Shown here one piece after another: positions 1,892 to 60,085 of a DNA stretch of 64,000 nt (its first letter is position 1; each line of letters opens with the position of its first letter). Origin of the DNA: Mollicutes bacterium (GTDB taxonomy: Bacteria; Bacillota_I; Bacilli_A; RF39; UBA660); contig DUQO01000018.1 in NCBI GenBank assembly GCA_012837765.1, positions 16,014 through 80,013 on the forward strand, written 5' to 3'. A program made the position numbers and the translations under genes. The notes beneath the pieces are model-generated. The model did no database searches and had not been told where the DNA came from. It was given only the letters and a program-made list of their open reading frames with translations.

Positions 1892-2419
1892 TTACATTAT
1901 ATTGCGACTTAAAAATTTAGATACTATTTCTGCTATTTTTCCGTCTATCTCTTTTATTTTATTATCAAGACCTAAAACTAAAACAGATCCTACTACATCA
2001 CCATCTGCAATAATAGGATAGATAATATAAGATGTTTCCTCTTCATTTTCATTATCTATCTTTATTTTAGCTGGATTTTGCTCAGTAACAGTCTGTCGCT
2101 TTAGAATTAATTCACTATATTCAGTATTTAATTCTTGATTTTCATACTTTTTACGTAATGTGGAGGTTGCAGCTACTACTTTATCCCTATCTGTAATTAT
2201 AAGGTTTATTTCCATGGAATCATTTAGAGAATCAACAATTAGTTGAGCAACATCTCCAATCCCTTTTATAGTTGAATGTTTGGATAAAATTATAGAATCA
2301 TCATTAACCATAATTTCCATCAATTCACCATTTCTAATTTTCAAGTTTTTTCTAATTTCTTTTGGAATTACAATACGACCTAAATCATCAATTCGCCTTG
2401 ATACTCCTGTTGATTTCAA
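1892..2419 (-). CDS. spoVT: Stage V sporulation protein T (AbrB-type N-terminus plus GAF-like C-terminus)
   Basis: MKSTGVSRRIDDLGRIVIPKEIRKNL closely matches B. subtilis SpoVT MKATGIVRRIDDLGRVVIPKEIRR. Length is 175 aa. The B. subtilis order pth-mfd-spoVT is conserved. Confidence 0.85.
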   Translation of the reverse strand: MKSTGVSRRIDDLGRIVIPKEIRKNLKIRNGELMEIMVNDDSIILSKHSTIKGIGDVAQLIVDSLNDSMEINLIITDRDKVVAATSTLRKKYENQELNTEYSELILKRQTVTEQNPAKIKIDNENEEETSYIIYPIIADGDVVGSVLVLGLDNKIKEIDGKIAEIVSKFLSRNIM

Positions 2420-20855: not shown

Positions 20856-22115
20856 TTAGACAATCTTTATTTTAGCACCTAAATTGCTAAGTTTATCTAC
20901 AAGGCCTTCGTAGCCGCGTAAAATATGTTCTATATTATATATACTAGTGGTCCCTTCAGCAACTAATGCTGCTAACACAAGGCAAGCGCCAGCTCTTAAG
21001 TCTGTCGCAACTACTTCACACCCTTTTAATTTAGTAGGTCCATATACCTTTGCTTCCTTACCATTTACTTTTATATTCGCACCCATTTTATTTAAATAAT
21101 CAACATTTTGAAATCTATTTTCAAATATTGTTTCTTCCACCAGAGAAACACCTTCACATTGACATAATAACGCTGTAATTGGTTGTTGCAAATCAGTTGG
21201 AAAACCAGGATAGGTAAAAGTTCTAATATTGACACCTTGCATATTATCAGACTTGCTGATCACAAAGTAATCATCTCCAATATCCACTTTTGTTCCAATC
21301 TCTTTTAATTTCGACGAAAGAGCTTCTAAATGTTCTGGAATTACATTTGCTATTTTTACATCTTTTCCAATCATTGCTGCTGCAATCATATACGTCCCTG
21401 CTTCAATACGATCAGGTATAACTTCATGGTAGCAACCATTTAATTTATCAACACCAATGATCATTATTTTGCTCGTTCCTGCACCAATTATTCTAGCACC
21501 CATATTATTTAGAAATATTGCAACATTAACAACCTCTGGTTCCTTTGCTGCATTTTCTATAATCGTTGTACCCTTAGCTTTAACAGCAGCAAGCATTATA
21601 TTGATAGTTGCTCCTACACTAGCAATATCTAAATAAATATTATTACCTATCAATTCATCAGCTTCAATTATATATTGATTACCTTTTTCTGTTATATTAG
21701 CACCTAAAGCTTCAAATCCCTTTAAATGTAAATTTATAGGTCGTACTCCTATTTTACAACCACCAGGAAAATACATTTTTACTTTTTTGTATTTTCCTAA
21801 TAATGCACCCATAAAATAATATGAGGCTCTTAATTTTTTTGAAATGGATTCAGGTATTTCTTTATTTTCTATATTGGTTGAATCAATAATCATCGTTTCA
21901 TTATCTATTTTCACGTTTGCACCTAAATATGTTAATATCTCATTTAATGCATCTCTATCTGTTATATTAGGAACATTAGATATTGTAACTACATCATCAC
22001 TTAATATTGATGCAGGGATTAGGGCAACCGCGCTATTTTTAGCACCGCTTATTTTTACGGTCCCATTTAATATATGATTCCCCTCTATTTCTAGCTTTTG
22101 CATATTTACCTCCAA
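20856..22115 (-). CDS. murA: UDP-N-acetylglucosamine 1-carboxyvinyltransferase
   Basis: KISGAKNSAVALIPASIL and active-site Cys region; about 419 aa. Confidence 0.9.
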   Translation of the reverse strand: MEVNMQKLEIEGNHILNGTVKISGAKNSAVALIPASILSDDVVTISNVPNITDRDALNEILTYLGANVKIDNETMIIDSTNIENKEIPESISKKLRASYYFMGALLGKYKKVKMYFPGGCKIGVRPINLHLKGFEALGANITEKGNQYIIEADELIGNNIYLDIASVGATINIMLAAVKAKGTTIIENAAKEPEVVNVAIFLNNMGARIIGAGTSKIMIIGVDKLNGCYHEVIPDRIEAGTYMIAAAMIGKDVKIANVIPEHLEALSSKLKEIGTKVDIGDDYFVISKSDNMQGVNIRTFTYPGFPTDLQQPITALLCQCEGVSLVEETIFENRFQNVDYLNKMGANIKVNGKEAKVYGPTKLKGCEVVATDLRAGACLVLAALVAEGTTSIYNIEHILRGYEGLVDKLSNLGAKIKIV

Positions 22116-24238: not shown

Positions 24239-25075
24239 TTAATCAAAAATATTATAAAAAATGAAAAACATTCGATCTCTACCTTGTAAATCCTTTTTCA
24301 CTTCATATTTAGTTCCTTTAAAATACTTTTGAGAAAGTGCAATAAGATCTTCTTTTTGATCGGCTCCAATTTCAAAAGCAATTAAGGCTTTATCATTTAG
24401 TATTTTCTTAGCATCTTTTAAAATCAAATCATAATATTTTAACCCATCAGGTCCACCATATAAAGCTGTTTCTGGTTCATATTTTTTAACTATATCCATA
24501 ATTTCTTCATCTTCTTTTAAATAAGGTGGATTACTTATTAAAACATCATATTTTTTGTTTTTTTTAATAACTTCTTTTAACATATCAGATTTATATATAT
24601 CAACTTCTACACCTAATTTTTTGGCATTTTGTTTTGATAGTTCTATAGCATCAAAAGAAATATCAATTAATGTTGCCTTCAAGTTTGGAATTTCCTTTTT
24701 TAAAGATAAACCTATTACTCCTGAACCAGTTCCAACATCTATCAAAGATATATTATCATTAAAATAGTTTAAAATATATTGTTTCGTATAAAAAATGAGC
24801 TCTTCGGTTTCAAAGCGAGGTATTAATACACCCTCTTTTATATTAAACTCATAACCATAAAAATCAACATTACCTATAACATATTGAATAGGTATTCCTT
24901 TTTTTATCAATTCAGCTTTATCTTTAAAGTCTTTTACTTTCTCTTTATCTATTTTACTATTATTGCTTTTATCGATTTCTTGGAGTTTAAAATAATGTTT
25001 GATTAAATAATCAATAGTTTTATCATCTATTTTATATTTTTCTTTACTTATTTTTATTAATTCTTGATATGTCAT
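24239..25075 (-). CDS. prmC: Release factor glutamine methyltransferase
   Basis: GTGSGVIGL and NPPY motifs. 1-nt overlap with prfA. Confidence 0.85.
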   Translation of the reverse strand: MTYQELIKISKEKYKIDDKTIDYLIKHYFKLQEIDKSNNSKIDKEKVKDFKDKAELIKKGIPIQYVIGNVDFYGYEFNIKEGVLIPRFETEELIFYTKQYILNYFNDNISLIDVGTGSGVIGLSLKKEIPNLKATLIDISFDAIELSKQNAKKLGVEVDIYKSDMLKEVIKKNKKYDVLISNPPYLKEDEEIMDIVKKYEPETALYGGPDGLKYYDLILKDAKKILNDKALIAFEIGADQKEDLIALSQKYFKGTKYEVKKDLQGRDRMFFIFYNIFD

Positions 25076-26145
25076 TACTCGCCAGCTAGCTTTCTTTTTA
25101 AATCCTCTGTAATAAGTGGCTCTATTATTTCATCTAATTTACCTTCCATAATGCGATCTAATTGCATTACAGTAAGATTTATACGATGATCAGTAACTCT
25201 ATTTTGAGGATAATTATAAGTTCTAATTTTTTCAGAACGATCCCCTGTACCTATCTTTGAACGACGAATTGCACCTTCTTCTGCCTCTTTTTTTCTTTGT
25301 GCTTCTTCATAAATTTTATTTTTTAATATTTTAAGAGCTTTTTCCTTGTTTTTTATCTGACTACGTTCATTTTGACAAGTAACTACTAATCCTGTTGGAA
25401 TATGTGTTATACGAATTGCACTGTCTGTAGTATTTACTGATTGTCCACCAGCACCACTACTACGATATACATCTATCTTTAAATCACTATCTTTTATTTC
25501 TACATCTAATTCTTCTTGTTCTGGTGTAACAACGACAGTTGCAGTTGATGTATGAACACGACCTTGTGTTTCTGTTGCTGGAACCCGTTGAACCCTGTGA
25601 GCTCCACTTTCATATTTTAATTTTGAATAAACATTATCGCCTTTTATCATAAATTCTATTTGACTAAAGCCACCGGCTTCACTTGGCATACTATATATCA
25701 ATTCAGTCTTAAACCCCATATTAGCAGCATATCTAGTATACATATCATATAAATCACCTGCAAAAATATTTGCTTCAGCTCCTCCAGCTGCTCCTCTTAT
25801 TTCAACAATAACATTTTTATTATCGTTTTCATCCTTAGGTACTAAAAGAATCTCTATCTCTTCTTCTAGTTGTTCTTTTTGTTCTTCCAAACTATTCAAT
25901 TCTTCCTTTGCCATAGGACCTAATTCGCTATCATGAATAAGATTTTTTACATCATCAATTTGTTTTAATATGTTTTTATATTTTTCATATGCTGTAACAA
26001 TATCTTCTAAAGCAACTTTCTCTTTTGATATTTTTGTTGCTTTTTTAATATCATTTATTACTTCTGTAGTCATCAAAAGATTATTTAATTCGTCATATTT
26101 TGCTTTGATGTTCTCAAGTCTTTCTATCATCTTATCACCTTCCAC
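25075..26145 (-). CDS. prfA: Peptide chain release factor 1
   Basis: PATE tripeptide (RF1-type PxT) and the GGQ motif. Confidence 0.9.
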   Translation of the reverse strand: MEGDKMIERLENIKAKYDELNNLLMTTEVINDIKKATKISKEKVALEDIVTAYEKYKNILKQIDDVKNLIHDSELGPMAKEELNSLEEQKEQLEEEIEILLVPKDENDNKNVIVEIRGAAGGAEANIFAGDLYDMYTRYAANMGFKTELIYSMPSEAGGFSQIEFMIKGDNVYSKLKYESGAHRVQRVPATETQGRVHTSTATVVVTPEQEELDVEIKDSDLKIDVYRSSGAGGQSVNTTDSAIRITHIPTGLVVTCQNERSQIKNKEKALKILKNKIYEEAQRKKEAEEGAIRRSKIGTGDRSEKIRTYNYPQNRVTDHRINLTVMQLDRIMEGKLDEIIEPLITEDLKRKLAGE

Positions 26146-34895: not shown

Positions 34896-37436
34896 TTAAA
34901 GTCCTTCTCCAACAGATAAGACAGCACGAAAGCCATAACCACCACCAAACTCAGCACCCATAAAATATTCAAAATTGAAAGGACCCGCAGAGGCACCACT
35001 ACCATAATAACCACCGCGAATAAACCAAGGATTACTGTTATTTGCCATATAAGAATAGTCTCCATACCATGATGTTGAGCCTGTTCCCACATTACTTGTC
35101 TCATAAAGTGCATCGCCTTTAGACGATATAGTTAATTTATAATTTTCTGTTTGATTATCCGTTTCAGCTACTTCATATACATCTTTATATTTAGAGTGTG
35201 ATATGTAAGCACTTTCACCATATACTGTTAAATATACGTGTGAATTATCTACATAGGCGGATAAATATTCCCAGGCTCCTCCTGACATATCATATATACC
35301 TGTTATATTTCCTGTTGTACTTGCCTTTACTCCATCAGTTGTATGGTACTCATTACAGATACTTTCATTTGTTGCATTTACTCCACTACCTGCACATCCT
35401 GTTTTATTTGAAGTGTTTGAATTATTCCATATTTCATTTGGATTACCATACTGTGATTTAGATAGATATGCTACTGCGCCCCATTCGGTATTCTTCATCA
35501 TATGGGTATCTATTCCATTACCACTGGTTCCCCAGCCATAGATTGAATTAGTTTCCATACTCCTTACTTTGTTAAATATATTATTTACTGATATGTATCT
35601 CCATGAAATTACTCCTGGTACTATTTTAACATTGTTACTTCCGTCATTGCTTGACTCAAATTTTCCTACCCAAATTCCTGTAAGTTCAACACCACCAAAG
35701 GTGAAAGCTGGATGACTTGTCCATGTTCCATTAGAGTCTGTTGCACGCCCTGTATTTACTAATGTTACTGTGCCTCCTAATGTATCATCTATACCTTTAC
35801 TAAATTGAACCTCGATTGTTCCTGTACTAGATGAATGCCATCCTGATGTAATCCTATATATATATCTTGGGATCCAGACCCACATTGAACCATCAGCTGT
35901 TTTAGCATTAGCCCACATCATTTCATCATAATTATACCATTCAGAATCTGACAAACTTGTATTAACCCAGGTTGTTCCATTCCATTTAATTGGGATCATT
36001 CCTTCTGCTAAAATAGGAGCGTTTGCTATACTTTTTTCACGAACATCTATTATTCTTTTAATACTCGTCTTATTTCCACTAAAATCACTAACTACATATT
36101 CAATTTTGTATGTTCCAGGTTTATTTATATTTAAATTACTAATTTTAATTATTTTGTCTGTTATATCCCCATCTACATTATCAATTGCTGTAGCTCCTGC
36201 ATCTACATACTCTTCACCAACATATAGATTTATTAAATTATCACCTAACAATGTGATTACAGGTTTTTCTCTATCAACACTAACAATGTCTTTTATCACA
36301 TATGGATTATCAAATTCACCTGTTCCTCTATCAATATATATATTTCCTTTTAAATTAATAACAGGTCTTGTGTGAATTGTAGTGTTGGCATCAACAGGAG
36401 CACCTAATGAACCAACAGAATTAACAGTCCATACTTTGGTGGAATTATTATCAGGTGTAAGAGTCCAATAATTATAAAAGTTTTTATATAAATAATTATC
36501 ATTTTTACAACTGATTCCATTATCACCTGATGTTTTATATGCTGTCAAACAATTATTATCTAGACTAGCGTATAAATAATCACTTCCATTTAATAATCCT
36601 ATTGATAAATTTGTTGTTTGTGTTACACATTCATTATTTAAAAATGTTGATTTTGTAACTCCACTAGTGCTATAACCTATTTTTCCAACACACCATTTGT
36701 TCGTTTGTACTTTTGCTTTGTTATTTTCACTTATGTTTGAATTGTACCAATTTTGCAATCTTGTCGCTATAGAAACAGAACTTTTATATTCATTTGTGTT
36801 TGAATTATCAAATGTTCCATTTCCTATATTTCCATTTTGTTCTGTTCCTTCTCCTTTTCGTTTTCCTTCATATATTATTTTTATAGAATCATCATTATTT
36901 ATTTTGACAATGCGCCATAAAGAATCATTAAATTCAATCCAATTTTTAGGATTTAATCCTCTATAATAATAAGTATTATTTGAATAATTAAAATGCAAAC
37001 CTGGAGTAGTTCCTGAAACTACATTAGTTGATTCAGTTAATTTATCAACTAAGAAAATTGGTGCATAACAACCTCTATCTTCATAACAAATAGATAATGT
37101 TTTTTTTGTTTCACGAACAACAAAAATCTTTTTAGTTAAATCAATTTCTTCGTCACTTCTAGGATCTTTAACAGGCAATTTTAATAAATTATCTTCTTTT
37201 AAATCATTTAATGACAAACTATAATAATTATAAGTATCAAGATGTTTTTCTATTTCATCACGGTGTCTTGAAACATATAATCTAGCATTATTTTCAAAAC
37301 TATCTATTAAAATATTATATGAATTTTCCTTAGCATTTCTTATCATTTTAAAAACGCTAGGTATAACAAGAGATGATAATATTACAAGTATAACTATTAC
37401 TGCTAATAATTCAACTAATGTAAATCCCTTTTTCAT
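34896..37436 (-). CDS. Large prepilin-type N-terminal domain protein with DUF5011 Ig-like domain and FGE-sulfatase-like C-terminal domain
   Basis: Class III signal MKKGFTLVELLAVIVIL (G|FTLVE). DUF5011 block PVITLLGDN...GATAIDNVDGDIT...PGTY...VSDFSGN. C-terminal motifs NTEWGAVAY, GIYDMSGGAWEY, PWFIRGGYY and GGGYGFRAV parallel the FGE/SUMF1 blocks. Own promoter and RBS AGGTGA. The ORF-track start is a TTG; the ATG is at 37436. Confidence 0.6.
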   Translation of the reverse strand: MKKGFTLVELLAVIVILVILSSLVIPSVFKMIRNAKENSYNILIDSFENNARLYVSRHRDEIEKHLDTYNYYSLSLNDLKEDNLLKLPVKDPRSDEEIDLTKKIFVVRETKKTLSICYEDRGCYAPIFLVDKLTESTNVVSGTTPGLHFNYSNNTYYYRGLNPKNWIEFNDSLWRIVKINNDDSIKIIYEGKRKGEGTEQNGNIGNGTFDNSNTNEYKSSVSIATRLQNWYNSNISENNKAKVQTNKWCVGKIGYSTSGVTKSTFLNNECVTQTTNLSIGLLNGSDYLYASLDNNCLTAYKTSGDNGISCKNDNYLYKNFYNYWTLTPDNNSTKVWTVNSVGSLGAPVDANTTIHTRPVINLKGNIYIDRGTGEFDNPYVIKDIVSVDREKPVITLLGDNLINLYVGEEYVDAGATAIDNVDGDITDKIIKISNLNINKPGTYKIEYVVSDFSGNKTSIKRIIDVREKSIANAPILAEGMIPIKWNGTTWVNTSLSDSEWYNYDEMMWANAKTADGSMWVWIPRYIYRITSGWHSSSTGTIEVQFSKGIDDTLGGTVTLVNTGRATDSNGTWTSHPAFTFGGVELTGIWVGKFESSNDGSNNVKIVPGVISWRYISVNNIFNKVRSMETNSIYGWGTSGNGIDTHMMKNTEWGAVAYLSKSQYGNPNEIWNNSNTSNKTGCAGSGVNATNESICNEYHTTDGVKASTTGNITGIYDMSGGAWEYLSAYVDNSHVYLTVYGESAYISHSKYKDVYEVAETDNQTENYKLTISSKGDALYETSNVGTGSTSWYGDYSYMANNSNPWFIRGGYYGSGASAGPFNFEYFMGAEFGGGYGFRAVLSVGEGL

Positions 37437-37464
37437 CAATTAAATCACCTATTTTCCTGAATTA

Positions 37465-38631: not shown

Positions 38632-38743
38632 TTTTATTATTATTTAAATAATATTATTATTATTATTGTTGTTGATAATGTTGATAAGATGTTTAAAGCT
38701 TTAAATTAAAGACTTTTAGAAATATAAAACTGTTTATAATTTG
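38632..38743. promoter_or_regulatory. oriC part between dnaA and dnaN: two abutting DnaA boxes plus an AT-rich unwinding region
   Basis: TGTTGATAA at 38670-38678 and again at 38679-38687 (TTATCAACA on the minus strand), flanked by (ATT)n runs. Confidence 0.7.
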
Positions 38744-40135
38744 TTATTTCAATTGTTGAATTAAATTGTCAATCATATTTTTTATTTCTTTATTACATTT
38801 TATATCACGTTCTATTTTATCGCAAGCATGAATTACAGTTGAATGATTTTTTCCACCAAACTCCATTCCTATTTTAATGAAAGATTCATCTGTTAATTTC
38901 CTTGATAAATACATAGCAACTTGTCTTGGATAAGAAATTTCATAAGTTCTTCGGTTTGATTTTAAATCATCAACCCTAACCTTATAAAATTCAGCTACGG
39001 TTTTTTGAATTCGATGAATATCATTTTTTAATGATAATGATTTGTTTAAATAATCTTTTAAAGCTTCAATTGCAACATCTAAATTGATTTTTGGAACATT
39101 AAACATAGTTGCATAAGCATATATTCTTGTTAAAGCTCCTTCTAATTGCCTAACATCAGCTTGAAAGTTATTAGCTACATATTCTAAAACGTCGTTTGTA
39201 ATTGTTTTACTTAAATCCCTGTTGATCATTTTCTTTTTCAAAATATTAATTCTAAGTTCATAATCAGGAGGGTAAATATTAACTTTAAGCCCCCAATTAA
39301 ATCTCGTTACAAGTCTTTCTTCCAATAGTTTTAAATCATCTGGTGAACGATCTGATGAAATAATAATTTGTTTATTATCATCATATAAATCATTAAATGT
39401 ATGGAAAAATTCTTGTTGTGATGCAGGAGCACCACTAAGCATTTGAATATCATCAATAATAAGAACATCAATATTTCTATATTTATCTTTAAAATACTCT
39501 ATATAATCATAATTAGTACCATTACTATCTCTTTTTGTTAAGTTAAGAAAATCAGATACAAATTTTTCGCTTGTTACATATAAAACCTTTTTATTTGTAT
39601 TTTTTACTATATAATTTCCAATAGCATGCATTAGATGTGTTTTACCAAGTCCACTATTTCCATATATAAATAAAGGATTATATGCTTTACCAGGGTTTTC
39701 TGCAACAGAAACCGCAGCAGCATGTGCAAAAAAGTTGCTTTCTCCTACAATAAAATTATCAAATATATATTTTGTATTTAAATTAGCTTGAATAGGATCA
39801 TTATATGGAACACCAATATTATCATTATTTGAAATTTGTTTCTTTTTAACATTTATTTCTTCTTCTAAAATAAATTGAAATTCAAAATTAGTTCCTGTTA
39901 CTTCATTAAATGTTTCGACTATTAAATCAATATAATTGTCATTCAAGTGTTTTTTATGAACATGCATAGGAACAATAACTTTTGCAATTCCATTATCCAA
40001 TTCATATAATTTAGTACCTTTAAACCAAGTATCAAAAGGAAGGGAAGTAAGCTTAGAACGAATAATGTTTAAAAAGTTTTGCCATATAGTATCTTTATCC
40101 ATTTTTATCACATCCTTGTTTACATCTAATATCAT
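38744..40135 (-). CDS. dnaA: Chromosomal replication initiator DnaA
   Basis: AAA+ motifs GNSGLGKTHL and box VII, C-terminal DNA-binding domain, 463 aa. Confidence 0.95.
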   Translation of the reverse strand: MILDVNKDVIKMDKDTIWQNFLNIIRSKLTSLPFDTWFKGTKLYELDNGIAKVIVPMHVHKKHLNDNYIDLIVETFNEVTGTNFEFQFILEEEINVKKKQISNNDNIGVPYNDPIQANLNTKYIFDNFIVGESNFFAHAAAVSVAENPGKAYNPLFIYGNSGLGKTHLMHAIGNYIVKNTNKKVLYVTSEKFVSDFLNLTKRDSNGTNYDYIEYFKDKYRNIDVLIIDDIQMLSGAPASQQEFFHTFNDLYDDNKQIIISSDRSPDDLKLLEERLVTRFNWGLKVNIYPPDYELRINILKKKMINRDLSKTITNDVLEYVANNFQADVRQLEGALTRIYAYATMFNVPKINLDVAIEALKDYLNKSLSLKNDIHRIQKTVAEFYKVRVDDLKSNRRTYEISYPRQVAMYLSRKLTDESFIKIGMEFGGKNHSTVIHACDKIERDIKCNKEIKNMIDNLIQQLK

Positions 40136-40507
40136 TTTACCTTATTTTATAACGTTTTGAACAAAAAAAGTGAAAAAACCTACAAAAAAAGAGTTGTTAA
40201 CATACTTATCAACACCAAAAACCTTATATTTGTAATAAAAAGAAGAGTTATCAACAAAATGTTGTTGATAATAACTTTTTTTATAATAAATTTGATTGTT
40301 GATATTGTTAATAACTCATCAAAACTTATAATAAAAGAAAAAAATTAAAAAAATATCAACAAAAAACCTAATTTATTTTGTCAATAATAAATATTTATCA
40401 ACAAGGAAAATTTTTTTTTAAAAAGAAATAATAAAATAAACCAATATCTTTTATTGACAATGAAGATGTGTTTAATTATAATGTTAATGAATGTGGAGGT
40501 GTATTAA
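40136..40507. promoter_or_regulatory. oriC part upstream of dnaA: cluster of DnaA boxes, plus the divergent dnaA and rpmH promoters
   Basis: TTATCAACA at 40206, 40248 and 40395. TGTTGATAA at 40263. One-mismatch boxes at 40297 and 40353. rpmH promoter TTGACA-17-TATAAT at 40455-40483. Confidence 0.8.
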
Positions 40508-40636
40508 ATGAAAAGACCTTTTCAACCAAATAAAAGAAAAGCTAAAAAGAAACATGGTTTTTTTGCTAGAAAAGAAGGAAAAGGAAAAATTCTAAAAAGA
40601 AGAAGAGTAAAAGGACGTAAAAGACTTTCTAAATAA
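40508..40636 (+). CDS. rpmH: 50S ribosomal protein L34
   Basis: My translation MKRPFQPNKRKAKKKHGFFARKEGKGKILKRRRVKGRKRLSK; RBS GGAGGTG. Below the ORF-track size cutoff. Confidence 0.85.
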   Translation: MKRPFQPNKRKAKKKHGFFARKEGKGKILKRRRVKGRKRLSK

Positions 40637-40674
40637 ATCCACAAGATGTGGCTTTTTTAGTATGAGGTGATGAA

Positions 40675-41013
40675 ATGAAAAAAATAAATATCATCCGCAA
40701 ATCAAAAGAGTTTGCAAAAATGATTAAAAATCGTCATTATTATAGTAATCGTTTTTTTATTATATATATAATGAAAAAGAGTGAAAAATATTTTCGTTTC
40801 GGCATCTCTATACCAAAAAAAGTAGGAAAAAGTGTAATTCGAAACAAAATTAAAAGACAAATAAAAAGCATTATCGATAATAATAAAAAATTTAATAGGG
40901 ATTTAGACTATGTTATAATAGTAAGGAAAGAAATATTAAATTTAAAATACAAGGAAATGGCTGAAAGTCTTAATTTGTTATTATCAAAAATTGATGGAGA
41001 GTGTAAAAAATGA
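40675..41013 (+). CDS. rnpA: RNase P protein component
   Basis: 112 aa basic protein after rpmH; pattern ...IRKSKEF... Confidence 0.85.
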   Translation: MKKINIIRKSKEFAKMIKNRHYYSNRFFIIYIMKKSEKYFRFGISIPKKVGKSVIRNKIKRQIKSIIDNNKKFNRDLDYVIIVRKEILNLKYKEMAESLNLLLSKIDGECKK

Positions 41014-43248: not shown

Positions 43249-44199
43249 GTGATGCTTATGAAACAAATAATTTATATTTCACTGCTTCTTATAGCTATTC
43301 CTTTTTTTATTGTCATAATATCATCTTTTGAGGGAGAAATACCAAAAGATGAACAAAAGGAACTAGAAGTTGAAGAAAAAGTATATGTTAGATTAAAAAG
43401 AGAAAAAACAGGAAATATAGAAAAAATAGAATTAGAAGAATATGTGTTGGGAGTATTAGCTGGAGAAATGCCAGTATCTTTTCATATTGAAGCTTTAAAA
43501 GCACAAGCTGTAGCATCACGAAGTTATGTTTTGAAAAGATTAAAATACAACAAAGAAAATGATTATGATGTAGTTGATAGTGTAACAAATCAAGTATATT
43601 TAGATAATTCATATTTAGAAGAAAAATGGTTAGATAAATATAATGAAAATATTGCAAAATTAAAAAAAGCAGTGACTGAAACAAAATTAGAATGTATTTT
43701 TTATGAAGGAGAAATAGCAGATGCTCTTTTTTTCTCTACTAGTAATGGTTTTACAGAAAATAGTGAAGAGATATTTAATAATACTGTTCCATATTTAAGA
43801 AGTGTTGAATCAGTATGGGATGAAAAAACATCTCCTGTTTTTAATGATCAAAAGACATATAACAAAAATGATTTTTATAATATGTTAGGAATAAAAAAGA
43901 GTAAAAAATTAGAAACTAGAATAACTGAGTATTCTGATTCCGGCCGTATAGTAAAAATAAAAATAAATGGTATTGAAATGAAAGGTTCAGATGTAAGAAC
44001 TAAATTAGGTTTAAGATCAACAGATTTTCAAATACAAGAAGAAGGTGAAAAAATAATTATAAAAACTAGCGGATTTGGTCATGGAGTTGGTATGAGTCAA
44101 TATGGAGCTTTAGGAATGGCTAATGAAGGATATAAATATGATGAAATATTAAAATATTATTATCAAGGAATAAGCATTAATAAATATAAAAATAAATAA
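43249..44199 (+). CDS. spoIID: Stage II sporulation protein D (SpoIID/LytB amidase enhancer)
   Basis: YVLGVLAGEMPVSFHIEALKAQAVASRSY matches the SpoIID signature. Confidence 0.85.
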   Translation: MMLMKQIIYISLLLIAIPFFIVIISSFEGEIPKDEQKELEVEEKVYVRLKREKTGNIEKIELEEYVLGVLAGEMPVSFHIEALKAQAVASRSYVLKRLKYNKENDYDVVDSVTNQVYLDNSYLEEKWLDKYNENIAKLKKAVTETKLECIFYEGEIADALFFSTSNGFTENSEEIFNNTVPYLRSVESVWDEKTSPVFNDQKTYNKNDFYNMLGIKKSKKLETRITEYSDSGRIVKIKINGIEMKGSDVRTKLGLRSTDFQIQEEGEKIIIKTSGFGHGVGMSQYGALGMANEGYKYDEILKYYYQGISINKYKNK

Positions 44200-44258
44200 C
44201 TTAATTTTTTTTGTATATTATTCTCATTATTGTTAAAACTCTTAATGAGGTGATATAT

Positions 44259-44894
44259 ATGACACATAAAAGGAAGTTAAAACCCTTTGTAATTCCTATG
44301 CTTTATAGTATTGCTTTTTTAGCTTTTGTAATAAGTTTGTTTTTCTTACGTGAAGCCTTAAACATGCCTGTTTTTGATGAAGATGATGATTATACTTATG
44401 TAAGTAAAACAATTTTTGATGATGATGTTCCTGTTGTTGGTAATACAAAAAGTATTATAAGACCATACAAAGATAGTGAAATAAAAATATTAAAGTATTT
44501 TTATGATAAAGATGCCGAAGTAGATAAACAAAAAGAATCAATTATTTTTTATGAAAACATCTATATGCCTAATTCTGGTGTTGATTATGGGGGAAAAGAA
44601 AATTTTGAAGTTGTTTCCATATTGGATGGAACTGTAATAGATGTAAAAGAAGATGATTTGTTAGGAAAGATAGTAGAAATTAGACATAGTAATGAAATGA
44701 TAAGCGTTTATCAAAGTTTATCTGAGGTTACGGTTAAAAAACAGGATACTGTTTCACAAGGTCAGATAATTGGAAAAAGTGGAACTTGTAATATTTTACC
44801 AGACTTAAAAGATCATCTTCATTTAGAAATAATTTTTAACGGTAAAGTAATTGATCCAGAAAAAGCATTTGATAAAACTATAAAAGATTTATAA
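44259..44894 (+). CDS. spoIIQ: Stage II sporulation protein Q-like M23/LytM-domain membrane protein
   Basis: IVEIRHSNEMISVYQSLSEVTVKKQDTVSQGQIIGKSG matches B. subtilis SpoIIQ VVEVEHADGLSTVYQSLSEVSVEQGDKVKQNQVIGKSG. Retains HLHLEI. N-terminal TM. Start at MTHKRK with RBS GAGGTGA. Confidence 0.75.
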   Translation: MTHKRKLKPFVIPMLYSIAFLAFVISLFFLREALNMPVFDEDDDYTYVSKTIFDDDVPVVGNTKSIIRPYKDSEIKILKYFYDKDAEVDKQKESIIFYENIYMPNSGVDYGGKENFEVVSILDGTVIDVKEDDLLGKIVEIRHSNEMISVYQSLSEVTVKKQDTVSQGQIIGKSGTCNILPDLKDHLHLEIIFNGKVIDPEKAFDKTIKDL

Positions 44895-45294: not shown

Positions 45295-46290
45295 ATGTTT
45301 AATAAGGATATAGGTATTGATTTAGGAACAGCAAATGTGTTGGTTTATGTAAAAGGACAAGGTATCGTTTTAAACGAACCTAGTGTTGTTGCAATTGATT
45401 CAGAAACAAAAAAACCTCTTACTGTAGGTACAGAAGCTCATGAAATGTTAGGAAGAACTCCAGGTAAAGTAAAAGCAATTAAACCGATGAAAGAAGGAGT
45501 TATTGCTGATTTTGAAATAACAGAAATAATGTTAAATTACTTTATAAAAAAAATAAAAGGTAAAAATATTTTTTCTCGTCCACGTATTCTTATTTGTTGT
45601 CCAGCTAATATAACGCAAGTTGAAAAAAATGCTATTAAAGAAGCAGCAGAAAGAACAGGAGCAAGAAGAGTATATCTTGAAGAAGAACCAAAAGTAGCGG
45701 CTGTAGGAGCAGGACTTGATATTGCCAAACCAAGCGGAAATATGGTTATTGATATAGGTGGTGGAACAACAGATATAGCAGTATTATCATTAGGAGGTAT
45801 TGTAAATAGTGCATCGATAAGGATAGCAGGAAATACTTTTGATAACGATATTGCAAAATATATAAAAGACAAATATAAATTATTGATTGGTGAAAGAACA
45901 GCTGAAGAAATAAAAATTAGAATAGGAACGGTTGCAAAAGGAAGTAAAAAAGAAAAAATGGATGTCCGTGGAAGGGATTTGGTAACTGGACTTCCACATA
46001 GTGTAACAATAACATCAGAAGAAATGGAAGAAACTTTAAGAAAAAGTGTCTATGAAATAATAAAGGTAACAAAAACAGTATTAGAGCAAACACCACCAGA
46101 ATTATCGGCAGATATAATCGATAAAGGAATTGTTATAACTGGTGGAGGTGCATTGATTGATGGATTTGATACATTATTAGCACAAGAATTAAAAGTACCA
46201 GTTTTTATAGCTGAAAGTCCTTTAACATGTGTAGTAGAAGGAACAGGAATTATGTTAGATAATTTACATCTTCTCGATAATTATTTATAA
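45295..46290 (+). CDS. mbl: Actin-like rod-shape protein Mbl/MreB
   Basis: DLGTANVLVYVKGQGIVLNEPSVVA; position after spoIIID. Confidence 0.85.
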   Translation: MFNKDIGIDLGTANVLVYVKGQGIVLNEPSVVAIDSETKKPLTVGTEAHEMLGRTPGKVKAIKPMKEGVIADFEITEIMLNYFIKKIKGKNIFSRPRILICCPANITQVEKNAIKEAAERTGARRVYLEEEPKVAAVGAGLDIAKPSGNMVIDIGGGTTDIAVLSLGGIVNSASIRIAGNTFDNDIAKYIKDKYKLLIGERTAEEIKIRIGTVAKGSKKEKMDVRGRDLVTGLPHSVTITSEEMEETLRKSVYEIIKVTKTVLEQTPPELSADIIDKGIVITGGGALIDGFDTLLAQELKVPVFIAESPLTCVVEGTGIMLDNLHLLDNYL

Positions 46291-54318: not shown

Positions 54319-55032
54319 ATGAATCAAGAAAAGTTTGGTAAATTTATAAAAGAAATAAGAAAGAAAAATAATTTAACACAAAAACAATTAGCAGATAAAT
54401 ATAATGTTACTTATCAAGCAGTTAGTAAATGGGAAAACGGAAGAAATATGCCTGATACTACACTGATAAAACAAATGAGCAATGATTTTGATATTAGTTT
54501 AGAAGAAATGTTTGAGGGAGAGTTAAAAGAAAACAAAAATAGTAAACAAAACAAGAAAAATATAATTCTTATATCTCTACTAATAATATGTTTAATAGTT
54601 ATATTTATTTTATCAATAAATTTTCAAAATAATAATGGTAATTTTAATTTTAAAACTTTATCTAGTAATTGTGATAATTTCAATATTTCAGGAAACATTG
54701 CATACAATGATAAAAAAACTTCTATTTATATTTCTAATATAAAGTATTGTGGAGGTAACGATACTACTGAATATAAAGAAATTGAATGTGTATTATATGA
54801 ATCAAATAATGACATTGAGAAAAAAATAAGTTCTTGTAATTATAAGGAAGAAAAAAATATTACATTAGAAAATTTTTTACAAACTGTTACCTTAACTGTT
54901 GATAATTATAAAAAAATTTGTAAGGAATATTCTGAAAATAGTTTATTTTTATCAATTAATGCAACAGATAATAACGGAAAGATTACTACTTACAAAATTC
55001 CATTGACATTAGAACAAAGCTGCTCTAATTAA
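54319..55032 (+). CDS. XRE-family HTH regulator with single TM and Cys-containing extracytoplasmic domain
   Basis: N-terminal HTH KNNLTQKQLADKYNVTYQAVSKWENG, TM segment IILISLLIICLIVIFILSI, C-terminal domain with 6 Cys. Confidence 0.6.
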   Translation: MNQEKFGKFIKEIRKKNNLTQKQLADKYNVTYQAVSKWENGRNMPDTTLIKQMSNDFDISLEEMFEGELKENKNSKQNKKNIILISLLIICLIVIFILSINFQNNNGNFNFKTLSSNCDNFNISGNIAYNDKKTSIYISNIKYCGGNDTTEYKEIECVLYESNNDIEKKISSCNYKEEKNITLENFLQTVTLTVDNYKKICKEYSENSLFLSINATDNNGKITTYKIPLTLEQSCSN

Positions 55033-55102
55033 ACTCAACTGAATGTTGAGTTTTTTCAACTCTTTCGTTATAGAAAATTTAATTAAATAATTTTATAATG
55101 AA

Positions 55103-55801
55103 ATGGAAAGGAGCAAAATTTTTATGAAAAAAATATTTTTTACAATTACAATGGCATGTATATTGTGTCTAGGTGTGTGTGCTTGTACAGCTAATACCGA
55201 ATTAAAGAAATTGCCAAATCCAGAAATAACGGAAGGAATACGAGGAGAACAATTTGGTATAGATAAGAACATTAATGAGGAAACAATTGATGAATATCTT
55301 AATAGACCCGATAGTGTGTATCGTGATATGAGAATGCTTAAAGATCCAGGTAATTATGAAGCGATTGGAGGAGATTCTTATCTTTCTGGTTTTGTAAAAG
55401 GATTTGAAGTAGTGCCATATCCATTATTAGTAAATGTTATAGGATTACCAGAAGAAGTTGGTGATACCTATACAGGAAAAACATTATATACATTAAACGA
55501 TAATGGGAAATACATTGCAAATTATGAAGAATCACTTGAAATCTTAGAATATTATTTTCCTAAAGATAAAAATATATTTTTAATGTGCGGTGGTGGAGGT
55601 TATGCTGGAATGACTAAAACTATGTTAGTATCACTTGGATGGGACGAAAATAAAATTTATAATGTTGGTGGATATTGGTATTATGAAGGAACTAATAATG
55701 TAGAAGTGAAAAAAACAAACTCTGATAACTCAATATCATATGATTTTTGGAAAGTAGTTTATCATGATATTGATTTTGATAATTTACATGAGGTAAAATA
55801 A
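55103..55801 (+). CDS. Lipoprotein, possibly rhodanese-like fold
   Basis: Signal/lipobox MACILCLGVCAC. IFLMCGGGGYAG...KIYNVGG resembles the rhodanese CxxGxR...VYNLxGG blocks, but the Arg is replaced. Confidence 0.4.
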   Translation: MERSKIFMKKIFFTITMACILCLGVCACTANTELKKLPNPEITEGIRGEQFGIDKNINEETIDEYLNRPDSVYRDMRMLKDPGNYEAIGGDSYLSGFVKGFEVVPYPLLVNVIGLPEEVGDTYTGKTLYTLNDNGKYIANYEESLEILEYYFPKDKNIFLMCGGGGYAGMTKTMLVSLGWDENKIYNVGGYWYYEGTNNVEVKKTNSDNSISYDFWKVVYHDIDFDNLHEVK

Positions 55802-56664
55802 TGAAAAAATTAATATTTTTTTCACTTACTATGATTTTTTGTTTGTTATTAGTTGGATGTAATAATAAACAAGATACATTTTCTTTAGATAAAGAATATT
55901 ATCAAAATAATTCGTTTAATGAATTAGATAAAAATACATTTGATGATTTAATTAACAATAAAAAATCTTTTGCTATATTTATATATCAACCGTTATGTAC
56001 AACTTCTTATGAATTTAATAAAATTTTAACTGAGTTCGCTAATCAATATCAAATAAGTTTTTACAAGATGTCATTTTCTGATATGAAGGAAACTGAGTTA
56101 AAGGAATATATTAAATATTATCCATCTTTAGTAATTTATCATGAAGGAGAAATAGTAGATTATTTAGATGCCAATAGAGATTCAGATAGTGAATATTATA
56201 AAAGTGTTGATGGATTTAAAAAGTGGTTTTCTAATTATGTGTCAATTCAAAAAAAGAATGATAATGATAATTTGATTTTAGAGGAAGAAACTAATAATGA
56301 TACAAAAATTGATGCAAAGTTAGAAGATATTGTATATGATGAAAATAAAGTAAATATTTATTTCTTTTGGGGTAATGGATGCCCTCATTGTGAAGAAGAA
56401 TTCAAATTTTTGAAAAGTATTGAAACTGAATATGGAAATTATTTTACATTGAATACATTTGAAGTCTGGTATAGTAAAGATAATGCGGAAATATTAGAGC
56501 AATTTGCTAATGCTATGGGAGATGAAGTAAAAGGTGTTCCATATACCATTATTGGGAATAAAACATTTTCAGGATTTAGTAAAAATTATGAAGAACAATT
56601 TTTAAATGCTATAAAAGAGCAATATCATAATAGTTATGATGTTTATTTTGATAAAACACAATGA
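55801..56664 (+). CDS. Lipoprotein with thioredoxin/DsbA-like CPHC motif
   Basis: Lipobox LLLVGC. WGNGCPHCEEEF is a CxxC redox motif (CPHC as in DsbA). TAATG overlap with the upstream gene. Confidence 0.55.
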   Translation: MKKLIFFSLTMIFCLLLVGCNNKQDTFSLDKEYYQNNSFNELDKNTFDDLINNKKSFAIFIYQPLCTTSYEFNKILTEFANQYQISFYKMSFSDMKETELKEYIKYYPSLVIYHEGEIVDYLDANRDSDSEYYKSVDGFKKWFSNYVSIQKKNDNDNLILEEETNNDTKIDAKLEDIVYDENKVNIYFFWGNGCPHCEEEFKFLKSIETEYGNYFTLNTFEVWYSKDNAEILEQFANAMGDEVKGVPYTIIGNKTFSGFSKNYEEQFLNAIKEQYHNSYDVYFDKTQ

Positions 56665-57048
56665 CAAATTACAATTTATCTAACTATAAACAGTTGAAAT
56701 TAGTGTTTTTTACATACATTTTTACATACGTTCTGTAGAGTTTGGTGTTCAAATTTTAGTTGTAGAAAATACAAATTCTTTGTAATTTCAACAAGAAATT
56801 TGTAAAAATTGCAGAAAAATTGCAGATTCTACACCATGTGGCTCAGGTAAAAAATATAAACAATGTTGTGGAAAATAACTTGCAAACCCACATAAAATAA
56901 TAAAAATATCGATTAGACTCATTTTATATTTGATGTTGTGGTTTTAGTTTTTAATTTTAAAAGGTGATCATAAAATATATAATGAATTTATGATATAATT
57001 GTAAGTATGAGAAAATGACAAATAATAATTTGAAAGGGAGTTGATTTT

Positions 57049-57204
57049 ATGAAAAAGAAAAAATTATTATATGCAATTACTTGTGCTTTAGGAAGTGGAA
57101 TGATAGGATTTTTTGCAGCAGATTTAAATGAGGTATATAGAATAGCATTATTTACTATTGGAGTTGTTTTAATGGTAAGTTCAATTATAAAATTAAGTAA
57201 ATAA
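57049..57204 (+). CDS. Small membrane peptide (51 aa)
   Basis: My translation MKKKKLLYAITCALGSGMIGFFAADLNEVYRIALFTIGVVLMVSSIIKLSK. RBS AAAGGGAG, upstream TGATATAAT. Confidence 0.3.
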   Translation: MKKKKLLYAITCALGSGMIGFFAADLNEVYRIALFTIGVVLMVSSIIKLSK

Positions 57205-57449
57205 ATAGTAATTTGAAAGTGAGATAATAGACGGAAGATAAGCAAATATTGCTTGATAATATAAATAAAGTACATACTAAATAATAAATTACAATTTATC
57301 AATTAGATTATCAATAAATTTTGATAGTCTTTTTTTTGTTCAACTTCAGATTGGTTGTGGTAGAAAGGTTAAACATTGTTTATTTAAAATTCCAAATTTA
57401 AAGGATTTTAAAAAATATGATATAATTTTAAATAGAGGAGACTTTAATT

Positions 57450-57554
57450 ATGAAAATTATTACGAAAGAAAAAGCTTATGTTCAATTAAAAGACATTGTG
57501 GAGTTGTTGAATCTTCTTTCAGGACTCCCTGGTTATGGCCTTATTCAGTTATAA
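57450..57554 (+). CDS. Small peptide (35 aa) with strong promoter and RBS
   Basis: My translation MKIITKEKAYVQLKDIVELLNLLSGLPGYGLIQL. RBS AGAGGAGA, extended -10 TGATATAAT at 57416-57428. Confidence 0.25.
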   Translation: MKIITKEKAYVQLKDIVELLNLLSGLPGYGLIQL

Positions 57555-58072
57555 AAAAGTGTTATGGAGAAGTATTAATTTGTACAAAAAATAATATGTA
57601 TGAATTTATAGAGTTTACAGATAAAGACACGATTAACTTTTTTAATAACCTTGATCATATTGCTGACTATTATCAGTTAAAGGATTTAAATGAAGAAGAA
57701 CTAATTAATTATGCTCAATCAATTGTTGAAGAAACCAAAAAATTAATAAAAAAATATAATTTTATGTCTAACAAAGAAAAATCGAAAAAATATTGCCGTA
57801 TAAAAAAACAGTGTGACAAAATGATTATAAAATTAATTCTATTAGAGATGTTTTATGGTTTAAACAAGGGTATCTAGATTTTGAATTACCAGTGGAAGCA
57901 GAGTATCCAATAGATTATGATATGAATAAGATTGAGAAATCAAAGAGTATAAAAAAATTAGCAAAATCACTATTTAACAAAAACAAACATAGATAAAGGT
58001 ATAAAAAGACAAGTGGTTAACAATTAAAAACTTTTTGTATTGTACAAAAGGTTTTTCTTTGTATACTATATG

Positions 58073-58100
58073 TTGAAAAAGGGATTATCCATGGTATAAT
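58073..58100 (+). promoter_or_regulatory. prfB promoter (TTGAAA-16-tgGTATAAT)
   Basis: Read directly from the sequence. Confidence 0.5.
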
Positions 58101-58115
58101 TATATTGGTGATAAT

Positions 58116-59229
58116 ATGGAAATGAAACAAATAAAACAAGAGTTTGAAACATATAAAAATGAAATTGAAGAAATATGGAGGCTTCTTTGACTTAACAGAA
58201 AAGGAAGAAAAAATTAAAGAATTAACTATTCAAATGAACAATCCAGACTTTTGGAATGATAAAGAAAAAGCAGAGAAAATAATCGAAGAATGTAATAATC
58301 TTAAAACAATTGTTGGGAATGTATCGACATTAAAAAAGACTATAAACGACAATATAGAAATGATAGAAATGTTGGATGAAGAACCAAATGATGAAATAGT
58401 TAGTATAATTGAGGCAGAAATGCCAGGTATAGAAAAGAAACTTGATGATCTTAGGCTAGAAGTAATATTGAATGAACCATATGATAAGAATAATGCTTTA
58501 CTAGAAATTCATGCAGGGGCAGGTGGAACAGAGTCTTGTGATTGGGCTAGTATGCTTATGCGTATGTATTTAAGATGGTGTGATGTAAAATCTTATAAAT
58601 ACGAGATACTAGATGTACAAAACGGAGATGAAGCTGGAATAAAAAGAGCTAATATCTTAATAAAAGGGTTTAATGCATATGGATATTTAAAAGGGGAAAA
58701 AGGAGTTCATCGATTAGTTCGTATCTCACCTTTTGATGCTAATAAAAGACGTCATACATCTTTTGCAGCAATTGAAGTTATACCACAAATAGATGATAGT
58801 ATTGAAGTTGAACTAAAGGATTCAGAACTAAAGATAGACGTATATCGTAGCAGTGGTGCTGGTGGACAATCAGTAAATACAACAGACAGTGCGGTAAGAA
58901 TCACGCATCTACCTACTGGAGTTGTTGTAACATGTCAAAACGAACGTAGTCAGATTAAAAATAAGGAAAAAGCTCTTCAAGTATTAAAAAGTAAATTATA
59001 TCAATTGGAATTAGAAAAAAGAGATAAATCCTTATCAGTAATGAAAGGAAATCTTTCCGAAATTAATTTTGGATCGCAAATAAGATCCTATGTTATGCAT
59101 CCTTATATGATGGTTAAAGATCATCGCACGGAAGAAGAAACAAGTAATGTTTTGAAAGTATTAGATGGGGATATAGATATGTTTATAGAAAAGTATTTGA
59201 AGGGGCGAATTAGTAATGAAAAAAAATAA
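58116..59229 (+). CDS. prfB: Peptide chain release factor 2, with programmed +1 frameshift at CTT TGA C (58185-58191)
   Basis: Frame 0 reads MEMKQIKQEFETYKNEIEEIWRLL then TGA. SD-like GGAGG sits 3 nt upstream of CTT TGA C. The +1 frame continues DLTEKEEKIKEL...SPF...GGQ through 59229. Parallels B. subtilis ...DFRGSL*DLESKE... Confidence 0.85.
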
Positions 59230-60085
59230 TGAATTAAAAAATATAAATAAATTGATAGAAAAAAGACATATCTTTAAGAGATATATCCTTTCTATAATAG
59301 CTATTTTTGTTTTAGCAGCGACATATAATTTATTTATATTGCCAAATAATTTAGTTTATGGTGGTGTTAGTGGTATAGCTGTTATAACAAAAAAAATAAT
59401 AGACCCTTCAGTTCTTATTTTTATTGTTAATGCCATTCTTCTAATTTTTAGTTTTATAATATTAGGAAAAGAAAAAACAAAAGGTTCAATATTGGGAATA
59501 ATGTTATATCCTATATTTATTGAATTAACTAAAGATATAGGAACTATTTTTGTTTTAGAAAACAAAGATATTTTACTAAATGTTCTTTTTGCAGGTTTTT
59601 TATCTGGTGTAGCAGCTGGAACTATTTTAAAAAATGGATTTAGTACAGGTGGGACTGATATAGCAGCTCAAATAGTATCAAAAGTATTTAAAATATCAGT
59701 TGGAAAATCATTACTAATAATTGATAGTATCATTATAATTTGTGGTGGAATTTATTTAGGAATTATAAATGTAATGTATGCTATTGTTTTATTATATATT
59801 TATAGTTTAATGACAGATAAAATAATACTAGGAATATCAGATAATAAAGCTTTTTATATAATTACTAAGAACGAAGATGAAGTGAAAGATTTCATCTTAA
59901 ACAACCTTAATCATGGCGTAACAATTTTAAAAGCTAAAGGAGGATATGAAGGTCGAAAAGAAAATGTATTATTATGCGTTGTACCTGCAAGGCATTATTT
60001 CAAACTCAAAGAAGGAATAGCTTTAATTGATGAAGAAGCATTCTTTGTAGTAACTGATGCCTATGAGGTTAGAGGAGGCGCATAA
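59216..60085 (+). CDS. YitT-family membrane protein (DUF161 plus DUF2179)
   Basis: GGVSGIAVITKK..., C-terminal DUF2179-like domain. The B. subtilis prfB neighbour yvjA belongs to this family. Confidence 0.7.
   Translation: MKKNNELKNINKLIEKRHIFKRYILSIIAIFVLAATYNLFILPNNLVYGGVSGIAVITKKIIDPSVLIFIVNAILLIFSFIILGKEKTKGSILGIMLYPIFIELTKDIGTIFVLENKDILLNVLFAGFLSGVAAGTILKNGFSTGGTDIAAQIVSKVFKISVGKSLLIIDSIIIICGGIYLGIINVMYAIVLLYIYSLMTDKIILGISDNKAFYIITKNEDEVKDFILNNLNHGVTILKAKGGYEGRKENVLLCVVPARHYFKLKEGIALIDEEAFFVVTDAYEVRGGA

Follow-up and report, generated by a model that had tools for sequence, protein, structure and literature searches.

A probable autoregulatory +1 frameshift site in the release factor 2 gene (prfB) of a low-GC bacterium filed as "Mollicutes"

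The plus-strand locus at 58116-59229 of the window (the whole 64-kb stretch of DNA analyzed, GC = 27.6%) harbors the gene of release factor 2 (RF2), prfB, distributed over two reading frames: a short ORF0 in frame 0 and a long ORF1 in the +1 frame. Neither single frame encodes the whole RF2, both ORF0 and ORF1 being needed, and the mechanical ORF list displays at this locus only a 24-aa ORF (58116..58190) and a +1 ORF starting with TTG (58144..59229, 361 aa). The features of the locus are as follows.

58026..58056, + strand: candidate intrinsic terminator at the end of the upstream unit, a hairpin with a 14-bp A/U-rich stem and a 3-nt loop (ViennaRNA)
58073..58100, + strand: predicted sigma-70-type promoter of prfB, TTGAAA, 16 nt, TGgTATAAT (extended -10; promoter scan)
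58107..58112, + strand: Shine-Dalgarno (SD) sequence GGTGAT for the initiation of ORF0 (read from the sequence)
58116-58118, + strand: start codon ATG of ORF0 (read from the sequence)
58116..58190, + strand: prfB ORF0, 24 sense codons (MEMKQIKQEFETYKNEIEEIWRLL) and the in-frame UGA, corresponding to RF2 residues 1-24
58177..58181, + strand: internal SD-like stimulator GGAGG (sequence and pattern search)
58182..58184, + strand: 3-nt spacer CTT (Leu), the E-site codon when the shift happens
58185..58191, + strand: shift site CTT TGA C, i.e., the P-site Leu codon, the RF2-specific stop and a weak-context 3' C
58185-58187, + strand: slippery CTT (the slippery run CTTT is 58185-58188)
58188-58190, + strand: frame-0 stop TGA, with the 3' C at 58191 (weak termination context UGA C)
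58189..59229, + strand: prfB ORF1 in the +1 frame, from GAC (Asp25) to TAA, RF2 residues 25-370, PCRF and RF-1 domains
58726-58734, + strand: SPF motif, RF2 residues 204-206
58861-58869, + strand: GGQ motif, RF2 residues 249-251
59227-59229, + strand: stop codon TAA of ORF1

The predicted promoter, showing 11 of 12 matches and a TG before the -10 box, was the top site in the interval 57600-59400. The succession of a TATAAT box, AGGTGAT and ATG is repeated upstream of ORF0 in three relatives (L083, L086 and L087), and (A)GGTGAT precedes not only the ORF0 ATG in these three loci but also many other genes of the window. More broadly, SDs of the GGAGG/AGGTGA type precede most gene starts in the window, SD-led initiation being the norm. 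The distance from GGTGAT to ATG 58116 is only 3 nt here vs 5 nt in the relatives, so that ATG 58122 might conceivably serve as an alternative start of ORF0; the frameshift would be unaffected either way. The alignment with the relatives (MDIKEL...) and B. subtilis (MELSEI...) favors ATG 58116. The A/U-rich hairpin just 5' of the promoter (58026-58056) probably terminates the upstream unit: in the ViennaRNA fold of 58019-58072 (-15.2 kcal/mol), its 3' arm and the following sequence are U-rich. This assignment is tentative, since a G+C-based terminator scan did not call the hairpin.

At the shift site itself, the layout suggested earlier from a first reading of the letters held up to the base. 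Frame 0 was said to end after 24 codons at CTT TGA C, and it does so at 58185-58191; the GGAGG placed 3 nt before CTT is found at 58177-58181 with the spacer at 58182-58184, hence exactly 3 nt from the slippery CTT and 6 nt from the stop. The +1 frame, claimed to enter the SPF/GGQ body of RF2, is open over 346 codons from GAC 58189 up to the TAA ending at 59229 and carries both motifs. It had also been remarked that the ORF track offers only a mis-started +1 ORF from 58144; this is the 361-aa ORF with the TTG start mentioned above, and the public annotation turned out to be mis-started too.

A search of both strands of the 64-kb window for the composite pattern GGAGGNNNCTTTGAC gave a single match even with 1 mismatch allowed, vs 0.06 matches expected from shuffles, and this match coincides exactly with the break in the RF2 reading frame. 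Taken by itself, GGAGG is common in the window (18 on the + strand and 25 on the - strand, 43 in total); hence, the significance of the site lies in the composite motif together with its position and conservation. The Rfam scan of 57500-59500 (E <= 10) returned only chance matches (eukaryotic snoRNAs, CrcZ) far under the gathering scores and, as expected for prfB, none of them overlapped the frameshift site. Likewise, the RNA fold of 58150-58270 (z = -0.78) gave no sign of an added stimulatory hairpin or pseudoknot, and none is expected for prfB.

The identity of the product was assessed on the fused protein, i.e., codons 1-24 of frame 0 joined to the +1 frame at Leu24-Asp25 (370 aa in total). 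It scored 522 bits with the NCBIfam model TIGR00020 (prfB; cut-off 370), whereas the RF1 models yielded 282-295 bits, under their cut-offs; a separate RF1 gene is present in the window at 25075-26145. The Pfam domains PF03462 (PCRF) and PF00472 (RF-1) were both recovered. The best RF2 match in the PDB was B. subtilis RF2 (9fy1 chain 8, E = 5e-131), aligned over residues 1-366 vs 1-366, with an identity of 53.7%; the identity to E. coli RF2 was 46.5% (over 340 residues). Importantly for the junction, residues 1-24 from ORF0 align without gaps to residues 1-24 of B. subtilis RF2, nor is there a gap at L24-D25 (...IWRLLDLTEKE... here, ...FRGSLDLESKE... in B. subtilis).

Collectively, these features indicate, with a probability of roughly 95%, that the locus is a prfB gene split over two frames by a canonical autoregulatory +1 programmed frameshift site. 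The claim of such a site made in the earlier note is thus supported, every feature that defines it at the sequence level being recognizable. The alignment with annotated prfB sites, proposed there as a check, revealed an architecture identical to that of E. coli K-12 prfB, which is annotated as a 2-piece CDS.

The conservation of the site was surveyed in 86 evaluable prfB loci comprising 79 of 80 GTDB species representatives, five metagenomic loci, E. coli and the window; the five metagenomic loci stand for four relatives, since L084 and L085 encode the same protein. A total of 54 loci were flagged for having CTT TGA at the aligned junction and the RF2 body in the +1 frame. In L063 the site so flagged is spurious, and the true one features only a weak SD (GAGACAG). 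The full motif [A/G]GG[A/G]GG-NNN-CTT-TGA-C was encountered at the aligned junction in about 52 of the 86 loci, E. coli K-12 included. Of the 53 true CTT-TGA sites, all but two (L020 with GGGAGC, and L063) are preceded by GGAGG or GGGGG at a distance of exactly 3 nt, and the stop is followed by C in 52. CTT stands directly 5' of the stop in all frameshift-type loci of the survey. In the other 32 loci, including three Phytoplasma and the Chryseobacterium group, the CTT-TGA site is missing and the body frame is open across the junction.

The motif is common to all eight closest relatives (57-76% protein identity), where it occupies the same aligned position, with A as the 3' base in L001. In these relatives ORF0 ends with W-R/G-L-L, and its last 24 codons align with ORF0 of the window; six loci have an ORF0 of 24 codons, and the other two one of 26 (L001) and 44 (L003) codons when counted from the first in-frame ATG. 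The picture agrees with a published survey of 12,753 RefSeq genomes, 64% of which carry the prfB frameshift motif (PMC12421855). According to this survey, the consensus site has an SD-like element 6 nt ahead of the stop codon (98.6% TGA, 1.4% TAA and 0% TAG), the run CTTT, and a C that is conserved 3' of the stop (PMC12421855); the site in the window matches this consensus. Two deviating sites were also observed in the course of the survey. One is the CTT TGA A of the Bacilli MAG L001 (~2825-2845), departing from the near-universal 3' C. The other, GGAGAC TAT CTT TAA C in the Candidatus Sumerlaeota MAG L017 (~3920-3945), has a frame-0 TAA exactly at the junction and could be a rare UAA-type prfB site, with the body frame being open upstream as well.

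The switch of the coding frame is also evident from the nine sequences of the clade. Upstream of the site, frame 0 is devoid of stops over the 24 codons and the +1 frame contains 2-4 stops in 9/9 sequences; downstream, in all nine again, the +1 frame is open and stops abound in frame 0. The spacer codon varies within the clade between CTT, TTG and TTA, which encode Leu throughout in frame 0 and Phe, Cys or Tyr in the +1 frame. The substitutions per codon position upstream of the site in the nine clade members (340/180/370) are similar for positions 1 and 3 and are not decisive, because the sequences are too strongly diverged; the informative tests are the pattern of open and closed frames and the synonymous changes in the spacer.

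Several explanations of the frame break other than programmed frameshifting need to be weighed. The window comes from a metagenome-assembled genome, and its A/T-rich sequence features homopolymer runs where indel errors tend to arise, so the break might reflect an assembly or sequencing indel, the functional gene being a single ORF, or else the gene might be a true pseudogene. An extra base fusing the frames, which the earlier note had named as the finding that would speak against the site, did not turn up in independent assemblies from separate samples, namely ERZ778607, a biogas-fermenter run in ERZ925066 and Logan ERR6175506 (cluster members P0121 and P0122 were used). In these three same-species assemblies, 200 of 201 aligned columns around the site match without any indel, and the site itself is base-for-base identical, which excludes an assembly indel. 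Moreover, the position of the break coincides exactly with CTT TGA C, preceded by the SD at 3 nt, an arrangement also seen in E. coli and about 50 further loci, and both halves of the gene are fully conserved and stop-free. Taken together, an artefact or a decayed gene is highly improbable.

It is somewhat less far-fetched, albeit still very unlikely, that no frameshift takes place at all and RF2 is initiated separately in the +1 frame, at ATG 58159 or TTG 58144, with ORF0 being an unrelated upstream ORF. This is the model that gene callers produce (e.g., the public 356-aa protein HHT38011.1), and the +1 frame is indeed open from 58144. However, no SD-like sequence precedes 58144 or 58159, whereas ORF0 is equipped with the predicted promoter and GGTGAT. 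Residue by residue, the ORF0 peptide shows homology to positions 1-24 of RF2 from B. subtilis and the relatives, but the N-terminus deduced from the +1 frame (MKLKKYGGFF) has no match in RF2. In the relatives, stops located 10-17 codons before the site block the +1 frame, in which the changes in the spacer are non-synonymous. In addition, the PGAP-annotated relatives P0082 and P0089 exhibit the frame-0 junctions NYWRLLDI and NLWRSLDI. Finally, the filing of the MAG under Mollicutes, many members of which decode UGA as Trp (PMC12421855), brings up the reading of the UGA as a sense codon (Mollicutes-type code 4) or its read-through in frame 0, again without a frameshift. Such decoding would meet a TAA after 8 more codons (LNRKGRKN*) and never reach the RF2 body; UGA is a genuine stop in this genome, as 13 of 57 long ORFs terminate in TGA, and the large conserved genes gyrB, secA and dnaA are intact under code 11. 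Besides, the intact RF2 with its SPF motif is itself a reader of UGA, and code-4 mollicutes lack prfB (PMC12421855). The chance that UGA is decoded as an amino acid here is accordingly vanishingly small.

The +1 frameshift in prfB is a textbook self-regulating recoding event in the gene of release factor 2. In the organism under study, translation would begin at ATG 58116, and 24 codons would be read in frame 0 until CUU (58185-58187), bound by the peptidyl-tRNA-Leu, occupies the P site of the ribosome and the RF2-specific stop UGA (58188-58190) its A site, UGA-C being a poor context for termination. An ample supply of RF2 would then lead to termination at the UGA and to the release of a peptide of 24 residues, whereas a shortage of RF2 would prolong the pause. 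During the pause, GGAGG, paired with the anti-SD of the 16S rRNA at the unusually short 3-nt spacing, would promote the slip of the tRNA-Leu from CUU to UUU, so that GAC (Asp) is read next and the 370-aa RF2 is finished in the +1 frame. Since RF2 would compete with the +1 slip, it would set the rate of its own synthesis. The slip, the role of the SD and the feedback by RF2 are presumed here by extension from experiments in E. coli and B. subtilis (summarized in PMC12421855). In the literature, the +1 frameshift and the fall of its efficiency with rising RF2 concentration have been demonstrated only for E. coli, B. subtilis and F. johnsoniae (PMC12421855, PMC10798248). Unregulated RF2, arising upon loss of the frameshift, is toxic in B. 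subtilis (PMC12421855). No tRNA genes were found in the 64-kb window; the 3' tail of the 16S rRNA and the tRNA-Leu genes lie outside it, so the pairing partners invoked in this scheme are presumed.

The mechanism is already known and represents ordinary biology, hence the practical value of the site lies in the correction of a mis-started public gene model. The public protein HHT38011.1 (P0001; 'MAG TPA: Mollicutes bacterium') comprises 356 aa and corresponds to window 58159-59229, being mis-started in the +1 frame at ATG 58159 (MKLKKYGGFFDLTEK...). The corrected gene model is join(58116..58187, 58189..59229), encoding 370 aa. Most metagenomic homologs and gene calls of the relatives are +1-frame mis-starts or truncations as well (326-359 aa). 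Models of the mis-started kind are devoid of the true first 24 residues and display a spurious N-terminus, e.g., MKLKKYGGFF. As the homologs are mis-started alike, the RF2 N-termini in these collections are systematically wrong. In one relative (L087 2001-3111; GCA_028692855.1, JAQUWK010000017.1), the frameshift is annotated with the join ~13 codons too early: the protein MDD3305160.1 (P0009) reads MDIKELKKTLD followed by YIKKRLKNYGGFFDV, which is +1-frame junk, and the DNA of L087 gives MDIKELKKTLDLYKKKIEELWRLL followed by DV at the canonical GGAGG CTT CTT TGA C.

As far as the genomic surroundings are concerned, the window seemingly spans the chromosomal replication origin (~38700-41000). 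The sign of the GC skew changes at ~40 kb (about -0.2 before, +0.25 after), between dnaA (38744-40135, - strand) and rnpA (40675-41013, + strand), which are separated by a gap of 540 bp (40136-40674); gene orientation switches there as well, with dnaN on the - strand and yidC-like and jag-like genes on the + strand. A side observation in this region is an 847-aa ORF adjoining dnaN (34896-37439, - strand), where a prepilin-type N-terminal cleavage/methylation signal (~25-60 residues) is the only recognizable element; the rest of it matched no NCBIfam model, and the ORF is unusually large for a pilin-like protein. The prfB gene is situated ~18 kb from the origin on the leading strand, in the order hpf, secA, ~3.4 kb of accessory genes, prfB, two yitT/DUF2179 paralogs, ftsE and ftsX; with its own predicted promoter, prfB stands at the head of the string that runs to ftsX.

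The gap between secA and prfB (54319-57877) accommodates an XRE/RstR-like HTH regulator, two putative lipoproteins and small ORFs. These accessory genes may represent a lineage-specific insertion, since no more than one or two short ORFs (135 aa, 44 aa) occupy the same gap in the close relatives L086 and L087. Downstream, the stop of prfB overlaps the ATG of the first YitT/DUF2179 membrane-protein gene by 14 nt (59216-59229), and the tandem YitT/DUF2179 paralogs overlap by 29 nt (60057-60085). The overlaps, along with the same string of genes in the relatives, suggest that prfB, yitT, yitT and ftsE form a translationally coupled operon.

The taxonomic label deserves a comment. NCBI lists the genome under 'Mollicutes bacterium', phylum Mycoplasmatota, yet MurA, MreB and SpoIID were recognized with scores exceeding the curated cut-offs, and SpoVT-like and SpoIIQ-like proteins with scores that fell short of theirs (window 1892-2419, 20856-22115, 43249-44894, 45295-46290). 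In view of this gene content, the organism looks like a walled low-GC Firmicute of a sporulation lineage, possibly sporulating, and not like a wall-less mollicute; the 'Mollicutes' label is probably a mere placeholder. The site confirms that a low-GC organism so labelled employs the standard genetic code and reads UGA as a stop. In the 2025 survey of RefSeq genomes cited above, 0 of 23 prfB-bearing Mycoplasmatota carried the frameshift motif, and its absence was inferred for the ancestor of the phylum (PMC12421855); the site described here contradicts that report only via the taxonomic label. Alternatively, the lineage and its sister MAGs might belong inside Mycoplasmatota or at its base, with the motif being lost later within the phylum, e.g., on the Acholeplasma/Phytoplasma branch. 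MAGs labelled Mycoplasma sp., Tenericutes or Mycoplasmatota (L003, P0082) carry the motif too, and it is absent in L007, L010 and L011 from the Acholeplasma/Phytoplasma branch. If this placement were true, the motif-bearing MAGs would mark the transition; the gene content, MurA, MreB and SpoIID among others, argues against it and makes it rather doubtful.

Among the systems available for comparison, E. coli K-12 prfB is the founding example of RF2 autoregulation. Its CDS (b2891) is annotated as a 2-piece join with AGGGGG TAT CTT TGA C after ORF0, and it shares with the gene described here the SD-like element, the 3-nt spacer, CTT TGA C, the Leu-Asp junction and the body in the +1 frame. The differences concern the length of ORF0 (25 codons in E. 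coli, 24 here), the SD-like sequence (AGGGGG vs GGAGG), the spacer or E-site codon (UAU, Tyr, vs CUU, Leu) and the neighborhood, which is prfB-lysS in E. coli and secA ... prfB, yitT, ftsEX here; furthermore, of the two, only E. coli has been seen to frameshift experimentally. The closest solved and experimentally studied relative is RF2 of B. subtilis (PDB 9fy1 chain 8, 6szs chain z), which resembles the fused protein at the junction (...RGSL-DL... vs ...WRLL-DL... here). The Firmicute-type synteny hpf, secA, prfB is common to both organisms, although ~3.4 kb of extra genes lies between secA and prfB in the window.

Further systems for comparison are the uncultured low-GC Bacilli/'Tenericutes' MAGs (e.g., MCI7702331.1 = P0082, P0089, L083-L087, L001-L003, L009). 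Their ORF0 ends with W-R-x-L (W-G-L-L in L083) and is 24 codons long in most loci, followed by the same arrangement of GGAGG or GGGGG, a Leu codon (Ser in P0089) and CTT TGA; the downstream string yitT, yitT, ftsE is shared as well. They differ in the protein sequence (57-76% identity) and, in L001, by CTT TGA A, and their prfB annotations vary from correct joins through one misplaced join to +1 mis-starts. The motif composed of the SD-like element and CTT TGA C is also shared by Flavobacterium johnsoniae prfB (PMC10798248). Ribosomes of Bacteroidia, however, sequester the anti-SD and rarely use SDs (PMC10798248). In contrast to this situation, the genome studied here uses SDs routinely; therefore, the classical SD-stimulated mechanism would be expected to operate at its prfB site.
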